NCBI RefSeq assembly: GCF_046119375.1
Contig: NW_027362769.1
Location: 292,702,001-292,766,000, forward strand
Length of the DNA stretch: 64,000 nt
Direction of reading: 5' to 3'
Source of the DNA: Phyllobates terribilis
Lineage: Eukaryota
Position numbers and translations under genes: made by a program. Shown here in pieces: positions 11,067 through 56,929 of this stretch (the first letter of the stretch is position 1; every line of letters begins with the position of its first letter). The notes under the pieces were generated by a model, which ran no database searches, was not told where the DNA came from, and saw only the letters and a program-made list of their open reading frames with translations.

Positions 11067-12270
11067 TGTAGCACCCTGAGGGCTCGGTTGCTACAGAGGT
11101 ATTGCACCTCACCCAGAGGTGTGATATCTCACTCTCAGGTAAGGATGGAGTGTGGATCAGGACCCGACACCTGCATGCATTACAACACATTGCCGTGGGG
11201 CAGGGCGACCAATATGCCTCTGAGATGGGCACGACAGTCCCTGTCCCTGGCTGGAGTTGGGGGAGGGAACACTGAGGAAGGGGAACCCTGTAGTGCAGGA
11301 GCAGGGAGGAAGCAGTTCCTGGGTGCATTGAGAAGGGAGTATAAAAGGTGGGCACCATCTTAGTTCAGTGCAGAGAAGTCTGAGCAGAAGTGGCAGGGAG
11401 CAGGGGCTCTGCATGAGCTCTGCTCCGGAGGCGGGCCTAGTAACAGAGGCCTAGGCCTGGAAGAGGGAGAAGGAAGGAAGAGGAGCGGAGAAGGCTCCAG
11501 GAACGAGGAATGAAGGGATCCCAGGGGTGCGGACGGGCGAGTCGCCACCACACGCCCGAATCCACCTGCGTGGAGGGGTCAGGCCAAAGGGGGAGACCGG
11601 TCCCCGAAACTAGTGGAGGCAGGAAACGACCCTCAGCTAGAAACCGGAGGCTGTGACATTTTATGTGGCGCAGCCCCTCGCTACACCCGCTAGGAAGGCA
11701 CCACATAGGGTCAGGGAAACTGGCGCCAAGTTTACCAAGAGGAGGCCCGAGGCAGCCGGACAGAAGGGTTGGTAAGAAAGGCCAGACAAAGGACACACAA
11801 AGGGGGTCCTGTGAAGCGCTCCAAAGTTATCTGGGAGTTGTCTGAGCCCCTCACCTGGTGAGCACAGTACGACGTGGGCAGCCGTTACCTGCAGACGTGG
11901 TCTGGATAATAAGAACTGTGAGAAAAGGCCCTGGACTGCATCACTGACTCCGTGTCGTTACTGCTGCTGCCCTGCACCATCACCCCCATCCTCCGCATAC
12001 ACTGCCCTGAGGCTATACTCCTCCCGTGGGGAGTTATACAATGCTCTGCTGCACCCACAACACCAGCCTCAGCGGTCTGCCCTGCAGCGGCGGTTCACTC
12101 TGACCGCAATCCACGGGTGGCGTAGTCGGACATTTAAACATCATAACCACAAAAATAGTTCCGCCACTGGTTTGACCACCCTGAGCCACGGAACCGGGTC
12201 GCCGCCACGAAGACTACAACCACCAGCATCCACCAAAAAGGGTCCGGCTCCGGGTGTCCCAAGGCCCAGG
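11067..12270 (+). mobile_element. Probable LTR fragment, truncated
   Basis: Starts TGTAGC, has a TATAAAA at about 11340, and tggcgtagtcgg (12118-12129) is complementary to the tRNA-Ser 3' end. No LTR terminus or TSD found; it fuses abruptly to L1 sequence. Confidence 0.5.
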
Positions 12271-12731
12271 GGGTGGATCAGAACATTTTCATCACCTTTC
12301 ACAATCACCAATGGGACAAGGCAGGGATGTCCTCTGTCCCCTCTCTTATACATCCTAGTGACGGAGCACCTGCTCTCATCAATTCGCCATAACCCCAATA
12401 TTAGGTGGATTGAGGTGGGAGGCACCGAGTACAAGTGCTCTCTATTTGCTGATGATGTCCTAGTATATATCACTCAATCACATATATCCATCCCTGCTGT
12501 TATGGCTGAAATAGATCACTTTGTTACATGGTCAAATTTTAAAATCAATGCAGCGAAGTCTGAGGCCCTCGATGTCTCCCTCCCCAAATCCATATAGGAT
12601 TCCATCCAGTCCAACTTTCCCTTTGCCTGGCCCTCACAGGGTATCAAATACTTAGGAATTCCTATTCACAGAGACCTCTCCCATCTATGTTATCTTAATT
12701 TTGAGCCCTTTATTGAACAACTCCATACAGA
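12271..12731 (+). pseudogene. LINE-1 ORF2 reverse transcriptase fragment
   Basis: Translation includes NGTRQGCPLSPLL and CSLFADD, and after a stop continues with IKYLG, all typical of L1 RT. Both ends are abrupt and there is no poly(A). Confidence 0.9.
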
Positions 12732-14609: not shown

Positions 14610-17600
14610 TTACTCTCCCCAGGATGACACAGGGGTAGAAAAGTCGTTTCGGATCCATGATTTGTTCATCTTTATGAACGTGAGTCTGTCTACATTATCA
14701 GTGGAGAGCCGCGTGCGCTTATCTGTCAGCACACCACCAGCAGCGCTGAACACACGTTCAGACACACGTTCAGACAGAACGCTGGCTGCGGGGCATGACA
14801 AGATCTCCAAGGCGTAAGTGGCTAGCTCCGGCCATTTATCCAGATTGGAAGCCCAAAAAGAGCAAGGGTCCAGTGACACAGTCATGGCTTCAATGTTTAA
14901 TTGGAGATACTCCTGTACCATCGTCTCTAGGCGTTGACTATGTGTCAGACTTCTTGTCTCCTGTGGCCTTGCAAAGGATGGGCTAAAAAAGTGGTGAAAT
15001 GATTCCGCAAAATTGATGTTACCAGCAGATACTGTGGTTCTGTTACAGTTTGAGTGCTGAACACTTGACGGTCCCACGGTTGGCAAGTTGGAACTGTGAG
15101 ATTCACTACGTGCACCACTGGTGTTTTGTGGAAAAGCACATGTAAGATTCTGCAACAGTCTGCTGATACTCCTGCATGCGTGCATCCCTTTCTATGGCAG
15201 GAATAATTTCTGCAAATTTACTTTTGTACCGGAGATCTAACAGTGTGGCAATCCAGTAGTCAGGATTATTTCTAATTCTCACAATTCGAGGGTCATGTTG
15301 CAGGTAGTGCAGCAAGAAGGCACTCATGTGTGTTGCGCATCCAGGAGCACCAAGTCCCTGTTGTGTTGGTGGCGAGGTAACAATCATGATTCCTTCCTCT
15401 GTCCTCTCCCTCCAACCTCGCACAACAGAAATGTGATCAAGGTCTCCCTCATCTGATGAGTCTTCCATCAGTTCGTCCTCCACTTCTTCCTGGGCTCCTG
15501 CACCTTCGTCACTAGTTTGTTTGGCTGCTATCATGCGCCCTGGTAAAACCATCTCCCCCACCCTCACATGCCTGCCGCCTTGGTGCTGCCAACCGTCTGG
15601 ACCTTGCAGATGTTAGCCCTTCCGCATACAACTCCTCCTCCTCTACTTCCTCCACCTCCTCTTGTGCCACCACCTGATTCCGAATTCTGTTTAACATGTG
15701 CTCCAGAATGTAAATCACCGGAATAGTCATGCTGATAATGGCATCGTCAGCACTAAACATCTTCCTCGCCATTTCAAAACTGTGCAGAAGGGTGCATAGG
15801 TCCCTGATCTGAGACCACTCCTCCAGCGTGATTTGCCCCACCTCTGGATCTCGTTGGCCCAGGCTATACGTCAGAACGTATTGCACCAGGACTTGTCGGT
15901 GCTGCCACAGTCGCTGCAACATGTGCAGAGTTGAATTCCACCGGGTAGGCACATCGCATTTTAGCCGGTGAAGTGGCAGGCCCAACGACTTCTGTAGAGA
16001 TGTAAGTCACTGAGCTGCGGGATGCGAACGGCGGAAGTGAGCACACAGCGACCGTGCCCTCTGCAGAAGGCCATCTAGTCTGGGATAGTGGGCTAAAAAT
16101 TGCTGGACAACCAGGTTCAACACGTGAGCCATACAAGGCACGTGTGTGACATTGCCCCGGGGAAGGGCCGCACCCAGGTTTGCAGCATTGTCGCACACGG
16201 CCTTCCCTGGTTTCAGGTCCAGTGGAGACAACCATTCATGAAATTGGTTCTCCAGAGCTGACCACAACTCCTCAGCTGTGTGACTCACATTTCCCAGACA
16301 TTTCAAAGTTAAAACCGCCTGATGACGTTGAGCCCTACTGCCAGCATAGTAAGGAGGTGTGCAGGATCCCTTCTGCGCAGTTAGAAAGCTTGTGGCATGA
16401 CCAGACAGGCTTTGGGTGCAGGTGGAAGACCGAGAGGAGGTTGAGGAGGCTGAAGCAGTGGAGGAACTTTGACATAAAGAGGATTGACGCACAACTCGTG
16501 GGGACGGCAAGACTTGGACAGCAGCCCCTTGTCCTGCTGTCACCATAGTTACCCAGTGCCCAGTCAGCGACATGTAATGCCCCTGTCCATGCCTACTCGT
16601 CCAAGTGTCTGTGGTGAAATGCACCCTGTCACACACAGAGTTTCTCAAAGAAGCGGTGATGTTGTGTGCGAGATGCTGGTGGAGCGCAGGCACACCTTTC
16701 TTTGAGAAGTAGTGCCGACTGGGCATCTGGTACTGGGGCACTGCGACGGACATAAGGTCTCGAAAATCCTCTGTGTCCACCAGGCGGAAAGGCAGCATTT
16801 CTGTAGCCAAGAGCTTGCAGATGGTGAAATTCAACCTCTTAGCTTTCTCATGGCTAGGAGGAAATGGTCCTTTACTTGTCCACATCTGAGGGACCGAGGG
16901 CTGGCTATTGTGCTTAGACGCGGTTGATAAGGGTGTCCCCGGCAAACTGCCGGTCTGTGAGGAAGATGCAGGCGGACATGTTAGGTTGCCTTGATCCAAA
17001 GGTGGTGCTATCGATGTCGGACAGCGCTCAACACCAGCTGGTGTTACCACCTCCAAAGAAAATGATGACCTGCCAATCACGCTGGCTGTTGCGGGTAAAG
17101 AGGTGGCAGGTCTGCGCCCCAAAACAGGTGTGACTGCTGTCCCCCCAGTCACAGAGGATGAAGAGGCCGCGGATGCACAAGATATGGCAGACGGTGGTTG
17201 GCCCGGTCGGCTAGGCCGCATTGTAGCACACTGAGCTTCCCACTGCAACTTATGCTTCATGTCCATGTGCCGGTTCATGCATGAAGTACTCAAACTATGA
17301 ATTTTTTGGCCTCTACTTAGCTTTTGCTGACAAATGTTACAGATAACACGAGTTGGGTCATTTTTATCGATCTGAAAAAATGCCCAGCCTATGCAAGGCT
17401 TAGCACCCATGCGACCTGAAGAGCCACCACGACTTGTGGTGAGAGGCAGAGTTGTGTTTGAGGATGCAGTTGTTGACGTGCTTCCAGTACTACGTCTCTG
17501 TCCAGGAAGGCGCAACCTGACCTCGTCGTCACTAGTATCTTCCTCCACCTCCTCTGCTGACCTCATCTCTTGGCTGACTGTGGGTTGACAGTAAGTGGGA

Positions 17601-18323
17601 TCTCCAACCTCATCATCATCACTCTGTGCGTTATCACACCCGTCGTCCTCAGAGCCAACCTGTTCCTGCCCTGACAAAAAAACTAAAGTTGTCGCTCCAA
17701 TCAGGTATTTGAGTCTCATCATCATCTTCCTCATTTTCTCCACCAACAGGAGGTACAGTTTGGGAACGACATTATGGTCAGAACCTTCTGCGTCTGGTCC
17801 TGGATAAGACTCATAAAGATTCTGGCCATCAGTGCAGATCATTTCCTCGTCTGGATTCACAGAAGCGCTGGAGTCGACCTCTGTTTCCCAGGCTATAGTA
17901 TGAGTAAACAGCTCTGCAGATTCAAACATCTGTTCTACCTCATACTCAGATGGGCAGCTGGAGATTTGGGAGCTGTGAGGAAGCAAGTGCGATTGGGGTG
18001 ACACCTTTGAGGACTGGAGTATTTGTGATGTTGAAGTTGATGTGGAGGAGAGCCCACTTAAAGGAGCACTTGATATCCTTTGAAGCACCTGCTGTTTTTG
18101 TGCCTTATCTATCTGGAATTTGTAGCGATTGGCGTGGCCGTAAGAAAGGGATCTTATCACATTGTCCGCTAAAAGAAGTAAACATTTTAGTTTGGCTGGA
18201 AGATGGTCTTTCTTCTGCAGATGTTACTGTTGCTTTAACACCTACCCCACGGACACAACCTTTTTTCCCCTTCCCAACACGCCTATTCCCCTTTCCACCA
18301 GCAGCAGGACTTTTTCCACTCAT
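14610..18323 (-). pseudogene. hAT (Ac/ZBED-like) transposase, frameshifted
   Basis: ORF pieces 18105-18323, 16007-18160, 15512-15985, 15106-15567 and 14610-15185. They contain a BED finger (WAFF..CNICQQ..MNRHMDMKH), FTTDTWTS, CDNAAN, PCMAHVLNL, DVPTRWNST and the C-terminal dimerisation motif SCPAASVLSERVFS..KRTRLS. Confidence 0.95.
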
Positions 18324-18439
18324 TTTGGTGGTTAACTAATTCACAACTCTGGAGTTTTTTGCACAAAAAAACAATGGATGGAAACCGAGCAGAGCTGAGT
18401 GGCCAAACTGTGGTATTAGGCCAAAACTATTGGCTGGGT

Positions 18440-21035
18440 TAGATGCAGAAAATGATTATATTCAGTTTGCAACCTGATGGAGGTCAGTATAGATGGACTA
18501 ATAGAACAAGTCCTACACACAGCTAGAAGCCCAAATATTTTTTCAGAAGTAGATGCAGGAAAAAAATATATTCAGTTTGCAACCTGATGGAGGTCAGTAT
18601 AGATGGACTAATAGAGAAAGTCCCACACACTGCTAGAAGGCCAAATATTTTTTCAGAGCTAGATGCAGACAAAAAATTATTTTGAATTTGCAACCTGATG
18701 GAGGTCAGTATAGATGGACTAATAGAGAAAGTCCCACACACTGCTAGAAGGCCAAATATTTTTTCAGAGCTAGATGCAGAAAAAAATTATATTCAGTTTG
18801 CAACCTGATGGAGGTCAGTATAGATGGACTAATAGAACAAGTCCCACACACAGCTAGAAGCCCAAATATTTTTTCAGAGGTAGATGCAGATAAAAAATAT
18901 TTTTAATTTGCAACCTGATGGAGGTCAGTATAGATGGACTAATAGAAAAAGTCCCACACACTGCTAGAAGGCCAAATATTTTTTCAGAGCTAGATGCAGA
19001 AAAAAATTATATTCAGTTTGCAACCTGATGGAGGTCAGTATAGATGGACTAATAGAACAAGTCCTACACACAGCTAGAAGGCCAAATATTTTTTCAGAGG
19101 TAGATGCAGATAAAAATTATTTTTAATTTGCAGCCTGATGGAGGTCAGTATAGATGGACTAATAGAGAAAGTCCCACACACTGCTAGAAGGCCAAATATT
19201 TTTTCAGAGCTAGATGCAGACAAAAAATTATTTTTAATTTGCAACCTGATAGAGGTCAGTATAGATGGACTAATAGAGAAAGTCCCACACACTGCTAGAA
19301 GGCCAAATATTTTTTCAGAGCTAGATGCAGATAAAAATTATTTTTAATTTGCAACCTGATGGAGGTCAGTATAGATGGACTAATAGAGAAAGTCCCACAC
19401 ACTGCAAGAAGGCCACATATTTTTTCAGAGCTAGATGCAGAAAAAAATTATATTCAGTTTGCAACCTGTTGGAGGTCAGTATAGATGGACTAATAGAACA
19501 AGTCCCACACACAGCTAGAAGCCCAAATATTTTTTCAGAGGTAGATGCAGAAAAAAATTATATTCAGTTTGCAACCTGATGGAGGTCTGTATAGATGGAT
19601 TAATAGAACAAGTCCCACACACAGCTAGAAGCCCAAATATTTTTTCAGAGCTAGATGCAGAAAAAAATTATATTCAGTTTGCAACCTGATGGAGGTCTGT
19701 ATAGATGGATTAATAGAACAAGTCCCACACACAGCTAGAAGCACAATATTTTTTCAGAGGTAGATGCAGAAAAAAAATATATTCAGTTTGCAACCTGATG
19801 AAGGTCAGTATAGATGGACTAATAGAACAAGTCCCACACACTGCTAGAAGCCCAAATATTTTTTCAGAGCTAGATGCAGATATAAATTATTTTTAATGTG
19901 CAACCTGATGGAGGTCAGTATAGATGGACTAATAGAGAAAGTCCCACACACTGCTAGAAGGCCAAATATTTTTTCAGAGCTAGATGCAGAAAAAAATTAT
20001 ATTCAGTTTGCAACCTGATGGAGGTCAGTATAGATGGACTAATAGAACAAGTCCCACACACAGCTAGAAGCCCAAATATTTTTTCAGAGGTAGATGCAGA
20101 AAAAAATTATATTCAGTTTGCAACCTGATGGAGGTCTGTATAGATGGATTAATAGAACAAGTCCCACACACAGCTACAAGCCCAATATTTTTTCAGAGGT
20201 AGATGCACAAAAAAAATATATTCAGTTTGCAACCTGATGGAGGTCAGTATAGATGGACTAATAGAGAAAGTCCCACACACTGCTAGAAGGCCAAATATTT
20301 TTTCAGAGCTAGATGCAGATATAAATTATTTTTAATTTGCAACCTGATGGAGGTCAGTATAGATGGACCAATAGAGAAAGTCCCACACACTGCTAGAAGG
20401 CCAAATATTTTTTCAGAGCTAGATGGAGATAAAAATTATTTTTAATTTGCAACCTGATGGAGGTCAGTATAGATGGACTAATAGAGAAAGTCCCACACAC
20501 TGCTAGAAGGCCAAATATTTTTTCAGAGCTAGATGCAGAAAAAAATTATATTCAGTTTGCAACCTGATGGAGGTCAGTATAGATGGACTAATAGAACAAG
20601 TCCCACACACAGCTAGAAGCCCAAATATTTTTTCAAAGATAGATGCAGATAAAAATTATTTTTAATTTGCAACCTGATGGAGGTCAGTATAGATGGACTA
20701 ATAGAGAAAGTCCCACACACTGCTAGAAGGCCAAACATTTTTTCAGAGCTAGATGCAGACAAAAAATTATTTTGAATTTGCAGCGTGATGGAGGTCAGTA
20801 TAGATGGACTAATAGAACAAGTCCCACACACTGCTAGAAGGCCAAATATATTTTCAGAGCTAGATGCAGAAAAAAATTATATTCAGTTTGCAACCTGATG
20901 GAGGTCAGTATAGATGGACTAATAGAACAAGTCCCACACACTGCTAGAAGCCCAAATATTTTTTCAGAGCTAGATGCAGAAAAAAATTATATTCAATTTG
21001 CAACCTGATGGAGGTCAGTATAGATGGACTAATAG
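18440..21035. repeat. ~110-bp tandem array (about 23-24 units) in the 5' region of hAT copy B
   Basis: Same monomer as 1809-3642 but a longer array with a different variant order. Confidence 0.95.
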
Positions 21036-22589
21036 ATTGATGCTATGCCCAAAAGATTTTACTTCACTAGGTGCAGTAAAAAAATTGGTATTCTATACAC
21101 AGGTGGTATATCTTGCAACACAGATAGGCTACTCCACTGACTAACACACTCTGCAATAGGCCAAAAAGGATTAGCTTTGCTAGATTCAGCCAAATGCTGT
21201 GAAAAAAAACTTGCACAGCACTCTCACAGACCTGCCTGGCAAAAACTGATAGGAACTGATGTAACCTAGTCCTGAAAAGGACTGCAATTACAATTAGTCT
21301 TTACTCCCACAATCTATCTATTTAAGAGCACAGACCTGCCTGATAAAAGTCGTAGCAAATGCTGTAACCTAGTCCTTAAAAGGACTGCAATCACAACTAT
21401 TCCCTACTCCCAAGCTATCTGTAGATTTGTGCGAAAATTGGCTTGAAATTAACAAGGTATAGCGCACACAGCAACAGCGGTGCCGTCTAACACGCAGCTG
21501 CAGCAGTGAGAAAATGGTGGCGACGGGGAAAATGGCTTGGTCTTATAGGGCAAGGACATGTGACATACACTGCCAATGACACATGCCCTTGCTTGTGTGA
21601 AAAAAACCACTTCGCTCCGTGTGTGCGCTGCTGATAGGCTGACAGATTGCACCTCCCCACTGTAAATGCAGGAAAGAGAAAAAAAAATGGAGATCTTCAT
21701 TATTCCTGCAGAGATCCATCCCTTGCCCCTCCCCCCACTCCGCTGTACACTCAAACTGCGTATTAACATTAATTTTCATCATTACTGAGAAAAAATCCAT
21801 TTATGATTTTGGTGCACGAACAGTTATCGAACATAACCTCGAACAGCCGAATTTTTCTCAAATCGTTCGTGTTCGCCGAACGGCTCGAACACCGCCCTAA
21901 ACAGCTCGAATTTGAGATTGGCGAACAGTTCGAGTCGAACAACGCTCATCTCTACTTGCTGGTGTGTTTTGGATCATTGTCCTGCTGCATAACCCATGCA
22001 AAAGAATAAGAAATCAGTAAGGTTGCAACCACTTTTTCACACCACCATATGTCTTTTTAACCTTGGGGTGTATACTGGATTCAAAAGATTCGCACAATAG
22101 CTAAATTAAACATTTTATTATTTATTTATGTACTCAACTTTTAAAAAAGACAAATACATCATTTGTCAAAATAATTTCCCCACTGTTCAACATACATTTT
22201 CCATCTGTCAACATGGAATCAAAAAACGTTTTAGACTGTACCACAAATGCACCACTGTTTTCATCTCTTCAAGAAATTTGAATCTTTATCTTTGTTCTTT
22301 GCCACATAATCCACTGTCACTCATTTATCCAACAAAATCCTTTCACGCTCAATGTTGTCATAAATCGTGGGTGGGTGTCTGTCTCTTTCTTCATGAATGA
22401 AACTTGTGCAAACTACCTTGAACTTCTTCGCTATAAATCACTTTCGTCATACTGTACACAAAGTCTACGATAAATATTGGCACCTGACACACCCTCAGAC
22501 CACAAAAAAATTAATCACTGCACATTACCCATCTTTCGTGCAAATTACTTTTCGGGCAGCCTTTGTTTCCGCAGTCACAAATGAACTGA

Positions 22590-23180: not shown

Positions 23181-24573
23181 AGTGAAAAATGCAGGAACAA
23201 GAGACTTCCTGCTTCTACACAGAGCAGAGAAAAGACAAGAATTATCTGGGTAGAAAGTCAAAATGAGCGATTGTAAGTACATAGTGCTATATATCATGAT
23301 AACTACAATATACTAAGAGGATAAAAACTTTGATGGGAGTGCTTGTTTAAAGAAGGAGGTTTTAGCTCTTGCTCAGTGAGTAAAATGGGCCATTTTAGAC
23401 ATTGTACGGAAGGAGAAAGAAGTTTGATCAAGAAGTTGTTTGGAGAGGGAAAAACATATAAAGAAGTCCAGAAAATAATTAGCTGCTCAGCTAAAAAGAT
23501 TTCCAATGCTTTAAAATATCAAACAAAAGCAGAATTATGTGGTAGGAAAATAAATACTACCATCCGCTTAGATCAATAGATCATAGAATCACAAAAACGG
23601 GAAATATGCATCAAATGATCAGCTGTAGGGAGATCAAAGAAGATGTTCAGTTTCCTGTGAATCCTGCAACCATCAGAAGATTCCTACGTGAAACCAAACT
23701 ATTTGCAAGAAACCCTCATAAAGTACCATTGCTGAAAAGAAGACATGATGAATAGGTTACAGTTTGCCAAAAAACACATTGACCTAAAGAGAAGTGGCTC
23801 AACATTCTATGGACAGATGAGAGAAAGATTATTCTTATTGAGTCTAAAGGTCACAGATAGTTTGTGAGACATACCCATAAACACTGAATTTAAGTCACAG
23901 TACACTGAGAAGACTGTAAAACATGGAGGTGCAAGCATAATGGTTTGGGGATGTTTCTCATACTATGGAGTTGGGTCCATTTATCTCATACCAGGCACCG
24001 TGGACTAGTTTGAATATATCAAAATACTGGAAGAGGTCATGTTGCCTTATGCTGAAGAAGAAATACCTTTAAATAAGTGTTTCAGCAGGACAATGACCCA
24101 AAAGACACCAGCAAGTGGGCAACATCCTGATTCCAGACCAACAAGACTGTTGTTATGAAGTGGCCAGCCCAATCTGCAGACCTCAATCCGATTAGGAATT
24201 TGTGAAGTGACATCAAAAATGCTGTTTTTGAAACAAAATCTAAAAATGCAAAAGATCTGTGGAATGTAATCCAGTCAGCTTGGGATGGAATATCTGTTCA
24301 CAGATGTTAGATGTAAGGTGACTCCATGCCACCCAGATGTAAAGCAGTTATCAGAAATAAAGGTGACAAAACTAAATATTAGTTCAGTGATTAACAGAAA
24401 AGCGAAGTCTGGCAACAAATTTCAGTTTATACTGGAAATATTTGAGTTTGAAATTAAAAATGCAGACACTGCTATTTATTAAAGTAGCCTATTATTCCTT
24501 TTTCCTCACGCTCTATTTAAAAAAATAATATTTTGTTTATGATTTAATTTGGAATTGAATGTGCAGCTCCCAG

Positions 24574-24995
24574 TGTTAGAACCTTGCTGTTAGGTTTTTT
24601 TTCCTTTGCTGGTCACATGACCTTGTTGGCCTATTTAATCCTGCTCCGCCCTTCTGGCTTTGCTGGACTTCATTGTATATCTACTTTCTAGCTAGCCTGT
24701 GCTCTGTATCTATCTCTGTTAGTTTGCTTGGTCTACGGACCTCTATGTTCTATCTATTTTGTTTGTTCGTCTGTCTGCTACTATTTCTGTTAGGAGGTGT
24801 CCCATATTCCTTCCAGTCCTTAGTACTTGTAGGGATTCCCTTCCCTCATCTATAGGTCTTCGTACAGACTAGATTAGGACTTTAGCAGGTCTGATCGCAG
24901 GATCAGGTTCCCTGTTACATCGTAGGGATTCAGCTGAGTCCTATAGTAGGGACAGATCTCCTCTCTTTCCTTAGCTTTGGTAGCAGAACATAACA
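24574..24995 (+). repeat. Gypsy-1 5' LTR
   Basis: tgttagaacc...cataaca. By eye it differs from the 3' LTR at one position (24594 G versus T). Confidence 0.97.
24632..24670 (+). promoter_or_regulatory. Putative LTR promoter: TATA-like box and predicted transcript 5' end
   Basis: TATTTAA at 24632. gctggactt begins 30 nt later (24662) and is complementary to the PBS position at 24998-25006. Confidence 0.65.
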
Positions 24996-25072
24996 GTAAG
25001 TCCAGCCTGCAAATTCTCTAAGGAAAGATTTTTTTTTGTTCCATCAAACACCTGCAGGGACTCTCTCTGGAA

Positions 25073-28000
25073 GTGGCCGAGCTCCGTCAGCACGTGAGTA
25101 ACTGTCCTGGAGCATATTTCTTGGAGCCTAAGGTATGTTTGCCGGATTTATTTTTTGGTGAACATCGAGAATTTTTTTCATTTAAAAATGCTTGCTTATT
25201 GTATTTTCGTTTGAGACCCAAGTCCTCTGGGGATGAATCCCAGCGCGTAGGGTTCATAATGTCACTTTTGCGCAAAGAGCCTCAGGAGTGGGCCTTTTCT
25301 TTGCAACCTAGTGATACATGCTTCAGATCAGTGGATAGTTTTTTTTCTGCTTTAGGACTATTATATGATGATCCTGACCGTGTGGCATCAGCTGAGACTG
25401 AGTTGAGACGTTTAAAGCAAGGATCGGGTAATGTGGAAAAATATTGTACTCATTTTCGTCGTTGGTCCACTCAAACAGGGTGGAACGATTCTGCTCTGAA
25501 AAGTCTATTTCTTGCTGGGCTCAGTGAAAGGGTTAAAGACCTGCTAATTGCTTATCCTACACCTGAGGATTTGCAACAGGCTATGCAATTAGCTATACGG
25601 GTGGATAGAAGACTGCGTGCTAGGGTTAATGAGAGCAAATCCTCTGCTATGTCAGTTTCTGGTTATGATAATGTGTGTACTAACAGTGGTGAACCGATGG
25701 AGATTGGATCGGTGGCACCTCGCTCTCAAGAAAAAGACCGTCGTTTTTCGGAAGGCTTGTGTTTCTATTGCGGAAAATCTGGTCATTTGATTAAAGGCTG
25801 TGAGCTTCGTATGAAGAAAGAAAAAAAAATGGTCAGTCACGCCCGTATTGCCTGTTTAAATTCCAAGGGTATATTTTTAGCTGCTTCCACGATTGCTCAG
25901 GAAAAATTAATGGAATTTCGGGTGTTTGTTGATTGCGGGTCTACACTAAATGTAATTGATGGGGGATTCGTGGAAAAACTCAATTTAAAACCTGAACCTT
26001 TATCATCCCCCATTGCTGTGGTTTCTGTGGATGGCTCCCCTTTGAAGAATATTACTCTCAAGGTCAGTGAATTTCCTCTCACTATTAATGGTGTTCACCA
26101 TGAGAAATTGGATTTGGTAGTGTTGAATAACTTGCCTTCTCCAGTAATATTGGGTTTGCCCTGGTTAAAATTTCACAATCCTGTACTGGATTGGTCTACC
26201 AGTGAAATTAAATCCTGGAGCCATAAATGTTATGACAAGTGTTGTAACGGGCGTATTGCAGCTTTGGATAGGGGAGAATTGCCTGTTCCTATTCAGGATT
26301 TTTGGAGAGTTTTTTCTGAGAAAGAATCGCAGGTTTTGCCTCCCCATAGAGACTATGATTGTTCTATTGAATTTGTCCCTGGAGCGACTCTTCCTAAAAG
26401 TCGTTTATTTAACCTTACTATTCCTGAGAGGAAGGCTTTGGAGGAATACATACAGACAAGTTTGGCCGCCGGTCACATTAGGCCCTCTAAGTCTCCTGTG
26501 GCGGTTGGATTTTTTTTTGTAAAAAAAAAGGACGGCGGTTTACGTCCTTGTCTAGATTTTCGTGAGATTAACAAAATTACGGTACGCAATCCTTACCCAC
26601 TGCCATTGATTCCTGATCTGTTTAACCAGTTATTGGGGGCCAAGTGGTTCTCTAAAATTGACCTTAAGGGGGCATACAATCTGTTGCGCATGAAGGAGGG
26701 TGATGAATGGAAGACTGCTTTTAACACTCCTGTGGGTCATTTTGAGAATCTGGTTATGCCTTTTGGTCTTACTAATGCTCCTGCATTTTTTCAGAATCTG
26801 ATTAATGACATCCTTAGACCTTTGATCGGTAAAAATGTGGTTGTGTATTTGGATGACATTTTGATTTATTCGCCAGATCTGGAGTCTCATTGGCGGAGCG
26901 TGCGTGAGGTATTACAGTTATTAATGGACAATTCGCTTTTTGCTAAGCTGGAGAAATGTGAGTTCGCTGTACAGAGAATTATTTTTTTGGGCTACATTAT
27001 CTCCAGCAAAGGTTTTGAGATGGATCCGGTTAAGGTTCAGGCTGTGCAGGAATGGCCTAGGCCTATTGGTTTGAAATCGATACAGAGGTTTTTGGGTTTC
27101 GCCAATTACTATAGAAAATTCATAAAAAATTTTTCTAGTATTGTCAAACCTCTGACTGATCTCACCAGGAAAGGTGCTGATGCGGTTCAGTGGTCTTCTG
27201 AGGCCATTGAAGCTTTTGTGTATCTCAAGGAGAGGTTCACCTCTGCTCCCATCCTTATGCAGCCTGATGTTACTAGGCCGTTTTTGGTTGAGGTTGATGC
27301 TTCCTCTGTGGGGGTTGGCGCAGTATTGTCTCAGGATAACGGGGATGGATTACATCCCTGTGCCTTTTTTTCAAAAAATTTTTCGGAGACTGAATTGAAT
27401 TACGATGTTGGTAATCGGGAATTATTGGCTATTAAACTCGCATTTGAACACTGGCGCCACTTCTTGGAAGGTGCGGAATTTCCCGTTCAGGTTCTTACGG
27501 ATCATAAAAATCTGATATATCTTGATGCTGCCAAGCGCCTGAATGCCCGTCAGGCTAGGTGGGCACTGTTTTTCTCGCGGTTTAATTTCTCCGTTACTTA
27601 CATCCCTGGTACTAAGAATGTTAAGGCGGATGCCTTGTCTCGCAGTTTTTCTCCCATAGTCGGTGCTGAGAAAGAGGAAAACATTTTACAAGAAGGTGTT
27701 GTGATAGCTGCTTTAGACTCCGTTTTGGAAGATGAGATTCTTAAAGCTCAGGAGAATGCCCCATCTAACACTCCTCATGGGAGGTTGTTTGTGCCTGGGA
27801 CCTTTAGGAGAGATTTGTTTGTTGAGTGTCACGAATCTCGGTTGGCAGGTCATCCCGGAATCTCTGAGACCAAGAGACTGGTGGGTCGCAGTTTTTGGTG
27901 GCCTGGATGGCAGAAGGAAGTCATTAAGTGGGTGCGCCAATGTACTATATGTGCTAGATCTAAGTCCTCACATACTCCTGCTGCGGGGTTGCTTTGTCCT

Positions 28001-29194
28001 TTGGAGGTCCCCAGTGCTCCTTGGACACATTTGGCTATGGACTTTATAACTGACCTTCCCCCCTCTGAGGGTTTTACTGTCATCTGGGTGGTCGTGGACC
28101 GTTTTAGCAAGATGTGTCACTTGGTTCCCTTCGTCAAACTGCCCTGCGCTAAAACTCTCGCTAAGACCTTTGTCAAAGAAATTGTCAGACTTCATGGCGT
28201 TCCTACTGACATTGTTTCTGATAGGGGTCCTCAGTTCGTGGCTCGTTTTTGGCGTGCCTTTTGTGACAGGTTGGGAATTCATTTGTCATTTTCGTCCGGA
28301 TATCATCCTGAATCTAATGGCCAGACAGAAAGGAAAAACCAGGATGTTGAGCAGTTCTTGCGTTGTTTTGTGGCAGACAATCAAGAGGGGTGGTCTGAGT
28401 TTCTGCCACTTGCCGAATTTGCTCTGAACAATCATACATCTTCTTCTGCTGGTTGTTCACCTTTTTTTTGTTGTTCTGGGAGACATACGTCGTTTGGGTC
28501 GTTCTCCAAGTTGGGATCTGCCATGCCTGAGGAGGAGAATTTTTCCGGTGATTTGGAAAGAGTTTGGACGGATGTGCGTGGTAATCTTCAGGAGGCCAAC
28601 AGAAAATCTAAAGACTACTTTGATAGGAAACGACAGGAGGTTTTGTTCGCTGTTGGTGACATGGTTTGGTTGTCCTCTAGGAATCTGCGGTTGAGGATTC
28701 CTTCTAAGAAATTGGGTCCCAAGTTTGTGGGGCCCTTTAAGGTGCTTCAGGTTGTCAACCAATCTGCTGTTAGGCTGGAGGTTCCTACCTCCTGGAGAAT
28801 TAATCCGGTCTTTCATGTCTCTCTGTTAAAAAAAGCTGTTGTGTCGGATGGTGACGCCTCTGCCTCTGTTCCTCCGGTGGTGGAGGACGGGGAATATGAA
28901 ATTTCTCGCATCCTTGACTCTAGACGGTATAGAGGTAGTTTGCAGTATCTTGTGGCCTGGAAAGGTTTCGGACCCGAGGATAACTCTTGGGTGAGGTCAG
29001 ATGATGTTTCCGCGTCCAGACTTATCAGAGCGTTTCACAGGAGATTTCCTGATAAGCCTGGTCCTAGGGGAGGTACTGTTAGAACCTTGCTGTTAGTTTT
29101 TTTTTCCTTTGCTGGTCACATGACCTTGTTGGCCTATTTAATCCTGCTCCGCCCTTCTGGCTTTGCTGGACTTCATTGTATATCTACTTTCTAG
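25073..29194 (+). CDS. Gag-Pol polyprotein (gag, CCHC knuckle, protease, RT, RNase H, integrase, chromodomain), 1373 aa
   Basis: Uninterrupted ORF with CFYCGKSGHLIKGC, VDCGS, YLDDILI, EVDASSVG..TDHKNL, HESRLAGH..CTIC, MDFIT/SDRGPQF/GQTERKN, GPKFVGPF and YEISRILDSR..YLVAWKGFGPEDNSW. It starts at GTG; the first ATG is at 25259. Confidence 0.95.
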   Translation: MAELRQHVSNCPGAYFLEPKVCLPDLFFGEHREFFSFKNACLLYFRLRPKSSGDESQRVGFIMSLLRKEPQEWAFSLQPSDTCFRSVDSFFSALGLLYDDPDRVASAETELRRLKQGSGNVEKYCTHFRRWSTQTGWNDSALKSLFLAGLSERVKDLLIAYPTPEDLQQAMQLAIRVDRRLRARVNESKSSAMSVSGYDNVCTNSGEPMEIGSVAPRSQEKDRRFSEGLCFYCGKSGHLIKGCELRMKKEKKMVSHARIACLNSKGIFLAASTIAQEKLMEFRVFVDCGSTLNVIDGGFVEKLNLKPEPLSSPIAVVSVDGSPLKNITLKVSEFPLTINGVHHEKLDLVVLNNLPSPVILGLPWLKFHNPVLDWSTSEIKSWSHKCYDKCCNGRIAALDRGELPVPIQDFWRVFSEKESQVLPPHRDYDCSIEFVPGATLPKSRLFNLTIPERKALEEYIQTSLAAGHIRPSKSPVAVGFFFVKKKDGGLRPCLDFREINKITVRNPYPLPLIPDLFNQLLGAKWFSKIDLKGAYNLLRMKEGDEWKTAFNTPVGHFENLVMPFGLTNAPAFFQNLINDILRPLIGKNVVVYLDDILIYSPDLESHWRSVREVLQLLMDNSLFAKLEKCEFAVQRIIFLGYIISSKGFEMDPVKVQAVQEWPRPIGLKSIQRFLGFANYYRKFIKNFSSIVKPLTDLTRKGADAVQWSSEAIEAFVYLKERFTSAPILMQPDVTRPFLVEVDASSVGVGAVLSQDNGDGLHPCAFFSKNFSETELNYDVGNRELLAIKLAFEHWRHFLEGAEFPVQVLTDHKNLIYLDAAKRLNARQARWALFFSRFNFSVTYIPGTKNVKADALSRSFSPIVGAEKEENILQEGVVIAALDSVLEDEILKAQENAPSNTPHGRLFVPGTFRRDLFVECHESRLAGHPGISETKRLVGRSFWWPGWQKEVIKWVRQCTICARSKSSHTPAAGLLCPLEVPSAPWTHLAMDFITDLPPSEGFTVIWVVVDRFSKMCHLVPFVKLPCAKTLAKTFVKEIVRLHGVPTDIVSDRGPQFVARFWRAFCDRLGIHLSFSSGYHPESNGQTERKNQDVEQFLRCFVADNQEGWSEFLPLAEFALNNHTSSSAGCSPFFCCSGRHTSFGSFSKLGSAMPEEENFSGDLERVWTDVRGNLQEANRKSKDYFDRKRQEVLFAVGDMVWLSSRNLRLRIPSKKLGPKFVGPFKVLQVVNQSAVRLEVPTSWRINPVFHVSLLKKAVVSDGDASASVPPVVEDGEYEISRILDSRRYRGSLQYLVAWKGFGPEDNSWVRSDDVSASRLIRAFHRRFPDKPGPRGGTVRTLLLVFFSFAGHMTLLAYLILLRPSGFAGLHCISTF

Positions 29195-29498
29195 CTAGCC
29201 TGTGCTCTGTATCTATCTCTGTTAGTTTGCTTGGTCTACGGACCTCTATGTTCTATCTATTTTGTTTGTTCGTCTGTCTGCTACTATTTCTGTTAGGAGG
29301 TGTCCCATATTCCTTCCAGTCCTTAGTACTTGTAGGGATTCCCTTCCCTCATCTATAGGTCTTCGTACAGACTAGATTAGGACTTTAGCAGGTCTGATCG
29401 CAGGATCAGGTTCCCTGTTACATCGTAGGGATTCAGCTGAGTCCTATAGTAGGGACAGATCTCCTCTCTTTCCTTAGCTTTGGTAGCAGAACATAACA
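29077..29498 (+). repeat. Gypsy-1 3' LTR
   Basis: Direct repeat of 24574-24995, followed by TSD CCCAG. Confidence 0.97.
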
Positions 29499-30379
29499 CC
29501 CAGTGCCTTTGTGTATATGGAAATACATTCTATTATGGGGATTGAGCTTTTTCTCAGTTGCTTTGAATACACTGCTATTATTTTGCACATAACTGTATGT
29601 AGTATATTAATTTGTCCTACCACTTTACATTCTTTTTACACAGTGTTACAACTGTTCTAATAGTATTTATAACTAAATGGTTCCCAATGTTTTAATAAAA
29701 TATTTCACCTTTATATCCCTTGTTTACTGACACAATCAGAAATAATCTGTTAATATATCAGCATTTAAAATGTCCAAGTATTTTTCTCAGTCATATATGA
29801 ATATATTAAGAAAGGGTAATCTGCCATTCTACATAATTTTCATGGGCTAAAGAGAATGCAAATGGCATTTGATGGCTCTTTCATGATCCTAAATTCTCTA
29901 GCTAGATTAGTTTGATTTCAAATTATTCCTTTTTTAGACTGTCTTATATAATGTATATCTTTTTATTCAATGTTATCAATCCATGTTGCATTCAAAAGTT
30001 ACATTTATGAAACACTAATAACATTGGTCACAATGACATGTTCAACATAGATATCACTATACTGATGTTTGCTGCAAAAATAGTTTTTTCAGCCCTTTCA
30101 CTAATACGATTTAGGATGTTGCTCCAGGCATACAAGGTGTTTGTTGCGTGTGTAGTGTCATCATAAATGGCTGAATTTTGATCTGTTTATTTTGCAGTTA
30201 TTTACCTTTTTGGTACATATATCTTTTGGTTCCAAATATCTTATCTGTTTTCTGATTAAGAGAAGAACATTTCACATATGAGTTCTGAGGTTAGAAGTGT
30301 CAAATTTAGCTCCTCTGATCTTGACCTGGTTCAGGTGGTTTTCAATGGGACCTCTATAGCACTAATGTGTGTCAATATG

Positions 30380-35011: not shown

Positions 35012-36600
<1,589 letters not shown>

Positions 36601-40074: not shown

Positions 40075-41152
40075 TGTAGCGTCGGCGTCCCTGCCTCCTG
40101 CTAGGCAGGGACGCTGTTCCCCTCACCTCTCCGCTCCATGCCCGGCGTCCTCCTCCCGCTCTGCTGGCAGCGCGCGCTGCTTCCCGGCCACTGTGTTTAG
40201 GGCGCGCGCGCTCCCCCTCTCTTAAAGGGGCAGCGCGCGCCGTCCTAAGGAGTCCCCGGCCAATGGCCGGAGGACCTCACCATATATAAGGCACCTCCTC
40301 CAAAATGGAGGTGCCCAAGCAATGTTGTTGCAAAGCCTTCACTCTGCTTCAACCCTCAGGTCCCGTTACCAGTTACCTGCCAGTCACCTGCCAGATTCCT
40401 GCTTGATACCTGCCTGATATCCGCTTACCTGCTTGCAAGCCTGCGGTCCGACGGTCTGCCTTCCGACACCTGTCAGTCTGTCTATGGACCAGCCTGCCCG
40501 CTCACCTGGGAGCGCTCACCTGCTACCTGCCTGCTAGCCTACCTGGAGGCTCTGCCGTCACTTGCCGTGACCACCTGCCAATCCAGAGACTCTTGCCCGC
40601 TCACCTGGGAGCGCTCACCTGCTACCTGCCTGCTAGCCTACCTGGAGGCTCTGCCGTCACTTGCCGTGACCACCTGCCAGTCCAGAGACTCTTGCCCGCT
40701 CACCTGGGAGCGCTCACCTGCTACCTGCCTGCTAGCCTACCTGGAGGCTCTGCCGTCACTTGCCGTGACCACCTGCCTGTCCTGAGACTCTTGCCCGCTC
40801 ACCTGGGAGCGCTCACCTGCTACCTGCCTGCTAGCCTACCTGGAGGCTCAGCCGTCACTTGCTGTGACCACCAGCCCGTCCAGAGACTCTTGCTCGCTCA
40901 CATGGGAGTGTCCACCTGCTACCTGTCTGCTAGTCTACCCAGAGACTGTCCCTGTCACTTGCTGTGACTACCTGCCCTTCTACCCAGACACTGTCCCTGT
41001 CACTTGCCGTGACTACCTGCCCTTCTACCCAGAGACTGTCCCTGTCACTTGCCGTGACTACCTGCCCATCTTCCCTGGGAGCCACCCACTTCCTTACAAG
41101 GACCGCCCCCTTGTATAGTTGCTCAGAGGTTTCGTCTCCCAGACCCGTTACA
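40075..41152 (+). repeat. Gypsy-2 5' LTR (1078 bp) with 99-bp and 45-bp internal tandem repeats
   Basis: 99-bp units at 40496, 40595, 40694, 40793 and a partial at 40892; 45-bp units at 40941, 40986 and 41031. Confidence 0.95.
40260..40322 (+). promoter_or_regulatory. Putative LTR promoter: CCAAT, TATATAA and predicted transcript start
   Basis: ccaat near 40260; TATATAA at 40283; gccc(a/g)agcaa begins 30 nt later. Same layout in the 3' LTR (45572 and 45602). Confidence 0.7.
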
Positions 41153-41165
41153 GTTTGCTCGGGCC

Positions 41166-42115
41166 ATGGAACCCGGTGGCACCCAAGCTCCCTAGCTCTC
41201 GGACCTATGTCATGAACTGTCCCGTCAGAGGTCCCAACAGGAGTCCATCCTGAGTCATCTGCGGAATGTCAACTCTCGCCTGGACACTCTTACTGCTCCA
41301 CCAGCAACCACCGCTAGTGTCATGACTCGCAGCCCGGCAGCGCCGCTGCCCACCAATACCATGTCATCCTGCCCTGGACCCCGGCTTTCTGCACCTCCAC
41401 GCATCGGAGGCGACCCCGCTCAAGCTCGGGGCTTCATAAACCAGTACACCCTGCACTTTGAACTCCTGTCCCACCAGTTTATCTCCGACCGGGCCAAAGT
41501 AGCCTTCATCATGTCCCATCTCACGGGGGAGGCACTGGCTTGGCTAAATCCTCTTTGGGAGAGAGGAGACCCCTGGTGTCCAACCTGCCAGCCTTTCTCA
41601 CGGCTTTCCGGAAAGTCTTCGACGAACCCGGATGGAAGACCTCATCCGCATCATCTCTGCAACGCCTCCATCAAGGAAATCTCACCGTGGGCCAATATGC
41701 CGTACGGTTCCGTACCCTTGCTTCGGAGCTGGCCTGGGATAATGACGCCCTGGTGTCTGTCTTTTGGGAGGGTCTGTCCGGCCGTATTAAAGATGAACTC
41801 GCCGGTCGGGACATACATACCACTCTCGACGACTTAATAACTCTTGCCACCCGGATTGACATCCGGTTCCACGAACGCGCCAAAGAGGTCACCCGTGAGA
41901 GGAGGTTTCCACGTCTAGCCTCTACCTTTCAGAAACCTGTCACTTCTCCCGCTACTCCCCAGGCGCACTCACCCGAGCCTATGCAGGTCGACCAGACCAA
42001 GATGGTCAAAACTCGTCAAGAGTTACGCCGTGCTGAGGGGAGCTGCTTCTACTGTGGCAGTAAGGAGCACCGGATCCGTTCCTGCCCGGAGAGGTCGGGA
42101 AACGCCTGTGTCTAG
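41166..42115 (+). pseudogene. Gypsy-2 gag (frameshifted) ending in a CCHC zinc knuckle
   Basis: ORF pieces 41322-41837 (GDPAQARGF..RAKVAFIMSHLTGEALAW) and 41540-42115 ([20 protein letters not shown]). Confidence 0.9.
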
Positions 42116-42157
42116 GATCGCTCAGAGAGGTCGTCCTAGACAAGAGTAAACCCTCTC
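42097..42157 (+). promoter_or_regulatory. -1 programmed ribosomal frameshift signal (G GGA AAC plus predicted pseudoknot)
   Basis: The heptamer is in the gag frame, the pol ORF is open in the -1 frame from it, and a 9-bp stem starts 5 nt downstream. Confidence 0.8.
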
Positions 42158-45100
42158 CATCCCTGTTGCTGTCGGTCTCTATCATCTGCGGGGAGAACCG
42201 TTATTTTGAACTAGCCCAACTTGACTCTGGAGCTGCCGGAAATCTCATTTCTCAGTCTCTGGTAGAGAAATACCGCATTCCCACCAAACCTCTAGCTGTA
42301 CCCTTATCTGTCGCTGCCGTGGATGGGGGCCTCTTACCACATCCCATTCAACTCATCACCGAATCCATAACCCTGCAGGTGGGAATGCTGCATTCTGAGA
42401 GCATCTTCTTTCATGTTCTGCCTGGACTCTCTCATGCCCTCTTACTAGGCCTACCTTGGCTTCAGAGACATGCACCCGTGCTTGATTGGCAGACCGGAGA
42501 AGTCCTTCGCTGGGGACAGGCCTGCCATAAGACTTGTTTAGTTCCCGTCCATCCTGTTCGTCATTCTCCTACTCCAGCCAATCTACCTGGTCTTCTGGCT
42601 CCTTATTGGTCGTATGCGGACGTCTTTAATAAAAAGGAGGCAGAGACATTACCCCCTCATAGACCATACGACTGCCCAATCGACCTGATGCCCGGCGCTA
42701 CTCCTCCCCGTGGGCGCATTTACCCTTTGTCCGCTGCTGAGACCCGATCCATGTCAGAATATATTGAGGAGAATCTGGCCCGGGGATTCATCCGGAAATC
42801 TACTTCCCCGGCGGGAGCAGGTTTCTTCTTCGTCAAAAAGAAGGACGGCTCACTCCGTCCTTGTATAGACTATAGAGGCCTTAACCAGATCATGGTGAAG
42901 AATAAATACCCCCTTCCGCTTATTCCGGAATTATTTGACCGTCTGAGGGGGGCTAGAATCTTCACCAAGCTGGACCTCCGTGGGGCGTATATTCTGGTCC
43001 GTATCCGTCAGGGGGATGAATGGAAGATGGCATTCAACACCCGGACGGCCACTATGAATACCTGGTAATGCCCTTCGGTCTCTGTAACGCTCCCGCCGTC
43101 TTTCAAGAGTTGGTCAATGACATCTTCCGGGACCTTCTCTACTCCTGCGTAGTGGTGTACCTGGACGACATCTTGGTCTTCCCTCCGGATCTCCCCACAC
43201 ACCGGAGGGATGTTCGTCAGGTTCTGCTCAGGCTCAGGCAGAACCACCTCTACGCTAAATATGAGAAGTGCCTCTTTGAGCAGACCTCGCTTCCGTTTTT
43301 GGGCTACATAATTTCTCAGACCGGCCTACGAATGGATCCTGAAAAACTGTCTGCCATCGAGAAGTGGCCTCGACCAGAGGGGTTGAAGGCTTTTCAGCGG
43401 TTCCTGGGCTTCGCCAACTACTACCGCCTCTTCATACCGCACTTCTCTTCCCGGACTGCCCCAATCTCGGCGCTCACCCGTTAGGGCACTAATCCCAGAG
43501 AATGGCCGCCCGAAGCTGAGGAAGCCTTTCTTTACTTAAAACAGGCTTTCTCTTCCGCCCCGGTGCTACATCGCCCGGACGGCAACAAACAATTCTTCCT
43601 GGAAGTTGACACCTCCTCCTCTGGAGCCGGAGCGGTACTTACCCAAAAATCATCTTCCGGGAGAATGGTAACTTGCGGCTTCTTCTCCAAACTCTTCTCC
43701 TCTTCCGAGCACAACTATTCTATAGGAGACCGAGAGTTACTGGCCATTAAGCTGGCATTGGAGGAGTGGCGTTACCTGCTTAAGGGGGCTCTTCACCCGG
43801 TAATAATTTACACGGACCACAAGAACTTGGCTTACCTCGAGAGTGCCCAGAGACTTAACCCGCGCCAAGCCCGGTGGTCCTTGTTTTTTGCTCGCTTTGA
43901 TTTTGTTCTTCATTTTCGCCCGGCTGACAAAAACATCAAAGCTGACGCCTTGTCTGATCCTTCCTGGTGTCTGATCTTGAGGAGGAACCTAAACACATCA
44001 TCGATCCCGCCAGAGTAATGCAGGTGGCCCCCGTGAGTCTAAATCGTCTCCCTCCCGGAAAGACGTTCGTAACGGTACCTGATCGGGAGAAGATCCTACA
44101 CTGGGGTCACTCGTCTAAGCTTGCTGGCCATGCCGGTCAGAAAAAGACCCTCCAGCTTATCACCCGGCACTACTGGTGGCCTACCCTGCACAAGAACGTA
44201 ATAGACTTTGTTTCTGCCTGTGTGTCCTGCGCCCGCAACAAGGTTCCGAGACTACTGCCAGCCGGTCGCCTCCTTCCTCTTCCAGTACCTGCTGCCCCCT
44301 GGCAGCATATAGCTATGGACTTCATAACAGATCTCCCTGTCTCTGCCGGTTGTACGGTCATTTGGGTGCTCGCTGACCGCTTTTCCAAAATGGCTCATTT
44401 CATTCCCCTGCCAGGCCTCCCGTCTGCACCCGAGCTGGCTAAAGACTTTATCCGCCACATCTTCCGTCTCCATGGCCTGCCCCTCCATATCGTGTCGGAT
44501 CGTGGGGTTCAGTTCACCTCACGCTTCTGGAGAGCCACATGTAAGCTGCTAGACGTCACCCTGGACTTCTCCTCCGCATACCACCCACAGTCCAATGGTC
44601 AAGTGGAGCGGATCAATCAGATCCTGACCAGTTACCTCCGGCACTTCGTTAATGCCCACCATTCAGACTGGGTGGATCTCCTGCCATGGGCCGAATTCTC
44701 TTACAATAATCACGAGAGCGAATCTTCCTCCCAATCCCCGTTTTTTGTAGTCTTCGGTCAGCATCCTCGGATCCCTTTTCCCGTCTTCACCTCGGTGGAC
44801 AATCCGGCTGCGGAATCTCTCATTAGCAAATTTTCCTCCATTTGGGAGAGTACCCGATCCGCACTCCTTCAGTCGTCCGAGCGGATGAAAAAACACGCTG
44901 ACAAAAAACGCCTGGATCCTCTACAATTCCGTCCTGGAGATAAAGTCTGGCTCTCGTCCAAGTATGTCCGGCTCAAGATTCCTTCCTACAAGTTAGGGCC
45001 TCGGTTCATCGGCCCACTAGAAGTTATCAAACAAATCAACCCGGTGGCCTATAAATTGAAACTCCCTGCCAACTTGCGGATCCCTAACTCCATGTATCTC

Positions 45101-45330
45101 TCCTCAAACCCGTGGTACTTAACTCTTTTTCCAAGTCTACAGGTACGCCTCCTGCTCCGGTTTCCGCTGAAAACGAGTTTGAGGTAGAGAAAATTCTGGC
45201 CACCAAAAGGGTAAGAGGAAAAACCTTTTTTTCAGGTAGATTGGAAGGGGTTTGGTCCTGAGGAGAGAACGTGGGAGCCCCGGGAGAACATCCATGGTTC
45301 TCTCATCCTTGATAAATTTCTGTCTGGCCT
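42097..45330 (+). pseudogene. Gypsy-2 pol (protease, RT, RNase H, integrase, chromodomain), several frameshifts and a stop
   Basis: [54 protein letters not shown], and a chromodomain remnant FEVEKIL..WKGFGPEERTWEP. In-frame TAG at 43482. Confidence 0.93.
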
Positions 45331-45360
45331 AAAAAAGTGGGGGCCTAAAGGGGGGGGTAA

Positions 45361-46287
45361 TGTAGCGTTGGCGTCCCTGCCTCCTGCTAGGCAGGGACGC
45401 TGTTCCCCTCACCTCTCCGCTCCATGCCCGGCGTCCTCCCGCTCTGCTGGCAGCGCGCTGCTTCCCGGCCACTGTGCTTAGGGCGCGCGCGCGCGCGCGC
45501 TCCCCCTCTCTTAAAGGGGCCGCGCGCGCCGTCCTAAGGAGTCCCCGGCCAATGACCGGAGGACCTCACCATATATAAGGCACCTCCTCCAAAATGGAGG
45601 TGCCCGAGCAATGTTGTTGCAAAGCCTTCACTTTGCTTCAGCCCTCAGGTCCCGTTACCAGTTACCTGCCAGTCACCTGCCAGATTCCTGCTTGATACCT
45701 GCCTGATATCCGCTTACCTGCTTGCAAGCCTACGGTCCGATGGTCTGCCTTCCGACACCTGTCAGTCTGTCTATGGACCAGCCTGCCCGCTCACCTGGGA
45801 GCGCTCACCTGCTACCTGCCTGCTAGCCTACCTGGAGGCTCTGCCGTCACTTGCCGTGACCACCTGCCAGTCCAGAGACTCTTGCCCGCTCACCTGGGAG
45901 CGCTCACCTGCTACCTGCCTGCTAGCCTACCTGGAGGCTCTGCCGTCACTTGCCGTGACCACCTGCCTGTCCAGAGACTCTTGCCCGCTCACCTGGGAGC
46001 GCTCACCTGCTACCTGCCTGCTAGCCTACCTGGAGGCTTTGCCGTCACTTGCTGTGACTACCTGCCCTTCTACCCAGAGACTGTCCCTGTCACTTGCCGT
46101 GACTACCTGCCCTTCTACCCAGAGACTGTCCCTGTCACTAGCCGTGACTACCTGCCCTTCTACCCAGAGACTGTCCCTGTCACTTGCCGTGACTACCTGC
46201 CCGTCTTCCCTGGGAGCCACCCGCTTCCTTACAAGGACCGCCCCCTTGTATAGTTGCTCAGAGGTTCCGTCTCCCAGACCCGTTACA
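45361..46287 (+). repeat. Gypsy-2 3' LTR (927 bp)
   Basis: Direct repeat of the 5' LTR with fewer 99-bp units and roughly ten substitutions in the non-repetitive part (by eye). Confidence 0.95.
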
Positions 46288-56905: not shown

Positions 56906-56929
56906 GGGGGAAAAAAAAGATTGAGTCCG

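Follow-up and report, generated by a model that had tools for sequence, protein, structure and literature searches.

The retrotransposon at positions 24574-29498 of the window, that is, of the whole stretch of 64,000 nucleotides of Phyllobates terribilis DNA analyzed here, most probably uses the nine bases at the start of its own RNA as the primer for reverse transcription, in the manner of the fission yeast element Tf1. For this reading, taken as a full explanation that includes the cap step described below, we estimate a probability of roughly 0.88 from sequence comparisons. It builds on the anatomy of the element, on the pairing between its primer site and its LTR, on the covariation of this pairing across families, and on an invariant C beside the primer site. 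The preliminary description of this DNA had already read the pairing as a sign of self-priming; this reading is now supported by the covariation and by tRNA-primed Gypsy controls that have no such pairing, and from them we infer both the priming and an RNA start at 24662. Self-priming is an expected trait of the Tf1/sushi group, to which this element adds a further member.

The element belongs to the chromodomain Ty3/Gypsy retrotransposons and was inserted recently (Table 1). It has the paired TG...CA LTRs, the target duplication and the protease-RT-RNase H-integrase order of Ty3/Gypsy elements, its best solved relative is Ty3 Gag-Pol, and a PF00385 chromodomain at residues 1292-1341 (42.2 bits, cut-off 25.1) identifies it as a chromovirus. 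The 5' and 3' LTRs differ by a single mismatch, at 24594. In the host genome, 10.6 Gb in size, at least 14 other copies among the best 40 of 951 candidate places scored were identical over 473 nt; the family is very young. When 30 family loci including this one were compared, the LTR 9-mer was kept in all of them and the primer site was unchanged in 29, the remaining locus having one C-to-T change. The copy in the window is broken near 25047-25051, where the beginning of gag is shorter by some two dozen bases and lacks a start codon; it was shorter there than all 25 measurable siblings out of 29 examined. Its long open frame notwithstanding, normal translation of this copy is improbable. By eye, a further, short frame (36 codons, hydrophobic) was seen at 24745-24855, starting from an ATG in the T-rich leader; it may reflect base composition.

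Table 1. Features of the self-priming candidate and of the second chromovirus in the window
Feature	Position	Strand	Remarks
Target-site duplication CCCAG, left copy	24569..24573	+	5 bp
5' LTR	24574..24995	+	422 nt, TG...CA ends
TATA-like box TATTTAA	24632..24638	+	30 nt upstream of predicted start
Predicted first 9 nt of RNA, putative self-primer GCUGGACUU	24662..24670	+	Preceded by T (pyrimidine-purine start); start predicted
Possible short flanking duplex with 24993-24997	24672..24676	+	One G-U; from fold
U5 arm of 11-bp duplex with 25018-25028	24964..24974	+	Would cross the primer duplex, like the Tf1 'pretzel'
2-nt spacer GT	24996..24997	+	Mirrors AC before 3' LTR; integrase trimming predicted
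Primer-binding site AAGTCCAGC, self-complementary type, without TGG	24998..25006	+
C after primer site	25007..25007	+	Invariant; predicted opposite m7G cap
Leader arm of 11-bp duplex with 24964-24974	25018..25028	+
Single open frame, 1390 codons	25022..29194	+	gag, protease, RT, RNase H, integrase, SH3, chromodomain
Short polypurine tract and TAC before 3' LTR	29066..29076	+
3' LTR	29077..29498	+	422 nt; own copy of the 9-mer at 29165-29173
Target-site duplication CCCAG, right copy	29499..29503	+	5 bp
Primer site (10 nt) and C of second chromovirus	41155..41165	+	Element at 40075-46287; different word, same geometry

The primer site (24998-25006) pairs without a mismatch with GCTGGACTT (24662-24670), being its reverse complement; from the first T of TATTTAA (24632) to the first G of this segment there are 30 nt. 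Both the nine-base complementarity and the spacing from the TATA-like box had been pointed out beforehand, and both were verified in the sequence. Two nucleotides (GT) separate the CA of the LTR from the primer site, just as an AC separates the polypurine tract from the 3' LTR; with this offset, the primer would terminate precisely at base 1 of the 9-mer. The TGG of a tRNA-type primer site is absent downstream of the 5' LTR, in agreement with the preliminary description, which overlooked that the same 9-mer is present in a host tRNA-Arg(TCT). By chance, a complement of at least 9 nt anywhere in a dinucleotide-shuffled LTR was obtained at rates of 89, 111 and 139 per 10,000 for 12-, 15- and 20-nt windows, and internal windows of these sizes matched the real LTR in 29, 47 and 77 of 4,011 cases. 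With the match limited to 25 to 35 nt after the TATA-like word, the figures were 16/58,888, 28/58,885 and 48/58,880 windows. In this single element the pairing, with a chance match of about 1% anywhere in the LTR, is therefore suggestive, not proof. In folds of the leader, the nine pairs formed with probabilities of 0.94-0.99 if the RNA starts at 24660 or 24662, and of about 0.5 if it starts at 24655. Two raw-read RNA data sets gave no reads on the window.

Further evidence comes from the other Gypsy elements of the genome. We gathered 120 places from five Pfam searches (20 per search batch), chosen by visual inspection so as to have long frames and a spread of scores, which together with the two elements of the window gave a set of 122 loci. 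An LTR pair was found in 85 of them (37 were dropped), and 50 of the 85 passed a boundary filter blind to the primer site (35 were dropped). These 50 strictly bounded elements comprised 38 chromoviruses and 12 non-chromodomain Gypsy elements that served as controls. A perfect complement of 9-10 nt to the own LTR was present in 33/38 chromoviruses, and all 38 were complementary within one mismatch, with TGG in none (0/38); among the controls, own-LTR pairing was found in 0/12 and a TGG site in 12/12. The chromoviruses used nine primer words, and each of them matched its own LTR (9/9) and none of the others (0/72 cross pairs). The word of this element is 9 nt long, compared to 10 nt in the other eight. 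A TATA-like word lay at -27 to -31 in the nine cases, with an A+T content of 0.89-1.0 at -30..-25, and the LTR's CA was followed by a 2-nt spacer in 38/38 chromoviruses. Compensatory changes on the two sides were also observed inside RT clades, at one site in L041 and at two sites in L114/L120. Thus, the covariation of the two 9-mers among related families that the preliminary description had proposed to look for was found, since both sides change together and the TATA+30 geometry is kept. Relatives that had lost the complementarity or carried a tRNA primer site, named there as the contrary outcome, did not appear among the 38 chromoviruses.

Regarding the relatives of the element, its nearest database proteins belong to poison frogs, other amphibians and teleost fish, and are mostly 60-68% identical over RT-RNase H. 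In an RT tree (FastTree) it falls within the frog proteins, with a fish branch next to them and a support of 0.99 for the joint group; fungal and plant elements fall outside the frog/fish group, in a tree built without a named V-clade reference element. A pattern search for sister families by polypurine tract gave a tandem array and one other place. The window also contains a second chromovirus (Table 1), which is older, has an RT 59% identical to that of the first element, and has its coding region spread over several frames. Its 10-nt site has a perfect complement at 45602-45611 in the 3' LTR and one mismatch in the 5' LTR, and its gag ATG comes directly after the invariant C.

According to the mechanism that we propose, RNA polymerase II would start at G24662, 30 nt after TATTTAA, and bases 1-9 of the RNA would then fold onto 24998-25006, probably aided by the 11-bp U5-leader duplex. 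By analogy with Tf1, the RNase H domain of RT would cleave the RNA behind base 9, and the 3' end released in this way would prime the minus strand, leaving a 2-nt end that would be trimmed by integrase. Plus-strand synthesis would next copy the primer, so that changes in the first bases of the RNA are written into the primer site, and this copying would explain the tight covariation. We consider this sequence of start, fold-back, release by RNase H and primer copying to be, taken jointly, highly probable. A further step would involve the cap: RT likely reads the m7G cap as one additional C; with a C in the template at 25007, this 3' end could then base-pair during the second strand transfer, and the template C would be rewritten or selected in each cycle.

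As to the structure of the leader, the 11-bp duplex between U5 and leader (24964-24974 / 25018-25028) was reached by 0/300 shuffles, and 9 bp of it are kept in the sister family. The primer-side flanking duplex (24672-24676 / 24993-24997) was equalled by 127/300 shuffles. When 13 representatives were analyzed, the U5-leader duplex passed in 8/13, although the leaders of other families often paired equally well, and the primer-side duplex was not above shuffles in 12/13. A three-duplex 'pretzel' is, then, only partly supported here.

Self-priming has been demonstrated in Tf1, where the RNA is reported to be cut between bases 11 and 12 (PMC7175516). Tf1 is reported to need two flanking duplexes, in a work that describes the 'pretzel' and presents self-priming as a common trait of Tf1/sushi elements (10.1101/2022.12.06.519325), and self-priming has been implicated from fungi to vertebrates (PMC4600332). 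It had also been proposed already for the vertebrate Tf1/sushi group (PMC6317226, PMC4600332, 10.1101/2022.12.06.519325), and the preliminary description rightly labelled the mechanism as known for Tf1 and proposed for vertebrate Tf1/sushi elements. Tf1 and Tf2 of Schizosaccharomyces pombe, Tj1 of S. japonicus and Tosmo1-3 of S. osmophilus resemble our element in being chromodomain Ty3/Gypsy elements, and also in having a primer site adjacent to the LTR and complementary to the 5' terminus of the transcript, no tRNA site, and a U5-leader duplex, as far as these are described in the same sources (PMC7175516, PMC4600332, 10.1101/2022.12.06.519325). Tf1 differs in the length of the primer (11 nt compared to 9 nt here), in its two flanking duplexes, only one of which is supported in this element, and in that its priming is experimental and the one proposed here is deduced. 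With the vertebrate V-clade (sushi-ichi, Amn) the element shares the domain order with a C-terminal chromodomain. The Sushi LTR model has a clear AATAAA (PMC3601003), whereas neither AATAAA nor ATTAAA was present in the LTR 24574-24995, nor in that of the sister family. The plant Tcn1 chromoviruses and TAR copia elements have a self-priming predicted from the same kind of signature (PMC6317226), but they belong to other hosts and clades.

Another aspect to mention is the base that follows the primer site, which was C in 38/38 chromoviruses. The LTR base before the primer was T or C in all 38, and therefore this C has no genomic pairing partner there. All nine words begin with GC, so that C plus GC could be one conserved triplet. 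The question of a triplet versus a single C was addressed in metagenome relatives, where 78 loci, 57 of them testable, gave 28 candidates; as an LTR pair was available in only 6/78 loci, a looser scan with a reversed control was used instead. The reversed control gave 17 candidates against the 28 real ones, which indicates that part of the 28 are chance matches. Those with a pyrimidine-purine start, a subset defined after the candidate list had been seen, amounted to 19, compared to 2 in the reversed control. Within this subset C follows in 17/19 candidates, in 13/15 distinct words and in 9/11 words whose primer starts with A; for the 13/15 words the binomial p is 3e-5 against an expectation of one third, a value that ignores kinship among words. 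By an alternative filter (at least 10 nt, or a confirmed LTR end) C followed in 15/18 candidates and 11/14 words, and without any filter in 19/28. Positions +2 to +8 of the metagenome primers vary. The LTR end was confirmed by a second LTR in only 5 of the 28, four with C and one with T. Two credible exceptions without C, both distant, were found: L218 has G, and L189 has T, with a pairing of 13 nt and a confirmed LTR end. The possibility that C marks the start of a conserved U5 helix was not supported, since 93/1,000 shuffles were as good.

RT is known to extend cDNA with C opposite the 5' cap, as reported for template-switch cDNA methods (PMC3853366); that is a property observed in vitro, and what we propose here is its fixation in the sequence of an element, beside the primer site. 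In addition, the 3' end of Tf1 cDNA is reported to carry the copied primer site, often with non-templated bases (PMC11042837). In the titles and the beginnings of the abstracts of the papers listed on the cap together with Tf1, self-priming or LTR retrotransposons, the C was not addressed; the primary Tf1 and vertebrate papers and their figures, outside our reach, may show it.

With these results, other explanations of the pairing could be evaluated. The complementarity might be due to chance, as about 1% of shuffles yield 9 nt somewhere in the LTR. Its probability is negligible, given that nine words are each matched solely by their own LTR at the same spacing and that none of the 12 tRNA-primed controls behaves in this way; covariation and controls together refute a chance origin. 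Alternatively, the element could be primed by the 5' half of the host tRNA-Arg(TCT), produced by a cut in the anticodon loop, the match in the LTR being a relic or an accident. The tRNA-Arg(TCT) gene (L111:1471-1544) indeed contains this 9-mer, whose last base is the first one of the anticodon, the site of this lineage has 9 nt where the other eight words have 10, and the use of half tRNAs has a precedent in some Ty1/copia elements. Against it, the match stops at 9 nt, since the next tRNA base would need a G and the element has C, and a pattern search for the tRNA match found one such gene. A half tRNA would also leave unexplained the LTR copy at TATA+30 and the eight other words, the tRNA comparison having covered the word of this element. 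Moreover, one of the fish-branch relatives (L175, L176) shares the first six bases but has a primer of 10 nt, which misfits the tRNA, and the other one has a different 9-nt primer. The available text of a plant survey reports half-tRNA use only in Ty1/copia lineages (PMC6317226). Taking this together, we regard priming by a half tRNA as highly improbable. A structural hairpin of the 5' leader, acting in packaging, dimerisation or translation control while another RNA primes, seems very unlikely as well. It would account for the covariation, which shows pairing and not priming, and the primer itself is deduced here. Nevertheless, in 38/38 elements one end of the duplex lies precisely 2 nt from the CA of the LTR, the position required of a primer end, and its start falls on a pyrimidine-purine step some 30 nt past the TATA-like word; a TGG site for another primer is not present, and the same geometry corresponds to the priming mechanism demonstrated in Tf1, as described in PMC7175516 and 10.1101/2022.12.06.519325.

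The interpretation of the C is more balanced. We lean slightly towards the view that it records the copying of the m7G cap by RT. A different possibility, which also assumes self-priming, is that C was kept by descent, as part of a start-codon context, as a base recognized through stacking or by RNase H, or as a preferred non-templated addition; we give it an appreciable probability, though one below an even chance. The lineage in which the gag ATG directly follows the C, in a GCC-ATG-G context, is in line with this, and so are the two exceptions (L218, L189). The shared ancestry of all sampled elements points in the same direction and weighs against the cap step, because the counts are not independent; so does the report of non-templated bases added by Tf1 RT at most cDNA ends (PMC11042837). 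On the other hand, C adjoins an ATG in 2/13 representatives, and in the remaining 11 the first ATG is 6 to 128 nt away. In addition, a role of C as the start of a conserved U5 helix was not supported, and the base persists across frog, fish-like and fungal-like branches while both of its neighbours vary. The wider proposal, namely that a cap footprint is present in self-priming LTR retrotransposons, from those of fungi to those of frogs, with a capped primer copied through its m7G and the C fixed in every cycle, is put forward only tentatively and appears to us rather doubtful.

Experiments have shown self-priming in fission yeast; for vertebrates, the literature consulted speaks of it as proposed or implicated. 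In this genome the question can be tested cleanly on natural material, with nine words that show compensatory changes, tRNA-primed controls from the same genome, and a very young family, for which mapping the ends of RNA and cDNA should be straightforward. If the C is written by the cap, the primer site plus C would be a base-exact marker of the start site, readable from DNA alone. In that case the primer would keep its cap, and the cap would contribute one more paired position to the second strand transfer, which may be undescribed; the account of how such elements complete reverse transcription would also gain a new detail. Without the cap footprint, the finding corresponds to the expected trait of a known group.

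Small contigs sampled for further families yielded plant-type elements, in which an LTR pair was found in 8/20; three were well bounded, and these three had TGG. They are plant-type Gypsy elements (L155, L156 and L166, on G000 contigs C3338, C5240 and C3549) that branch with an algal protein, and many of the top Pfam matches were on such contigs. Their TGG site is presumably of the initiator-Met type. The small contigs with plant-type Gypsy elements are likely plant contamination of the assembly. In the window itself, the flanks of the element (23800-24568 and 29504-29620) suggest, from a motif, that it may lie inside a decayed, putatively Tc1/mariner-like transposon. Elsewhere in the window, at 18340-21170, 16007-18223, 35352-36395, 56873-57748 and 11815-12597, we observed a 110-bp tandem array, two BED-finger frames, a Tc1-type transposase frame and an RT fragment.
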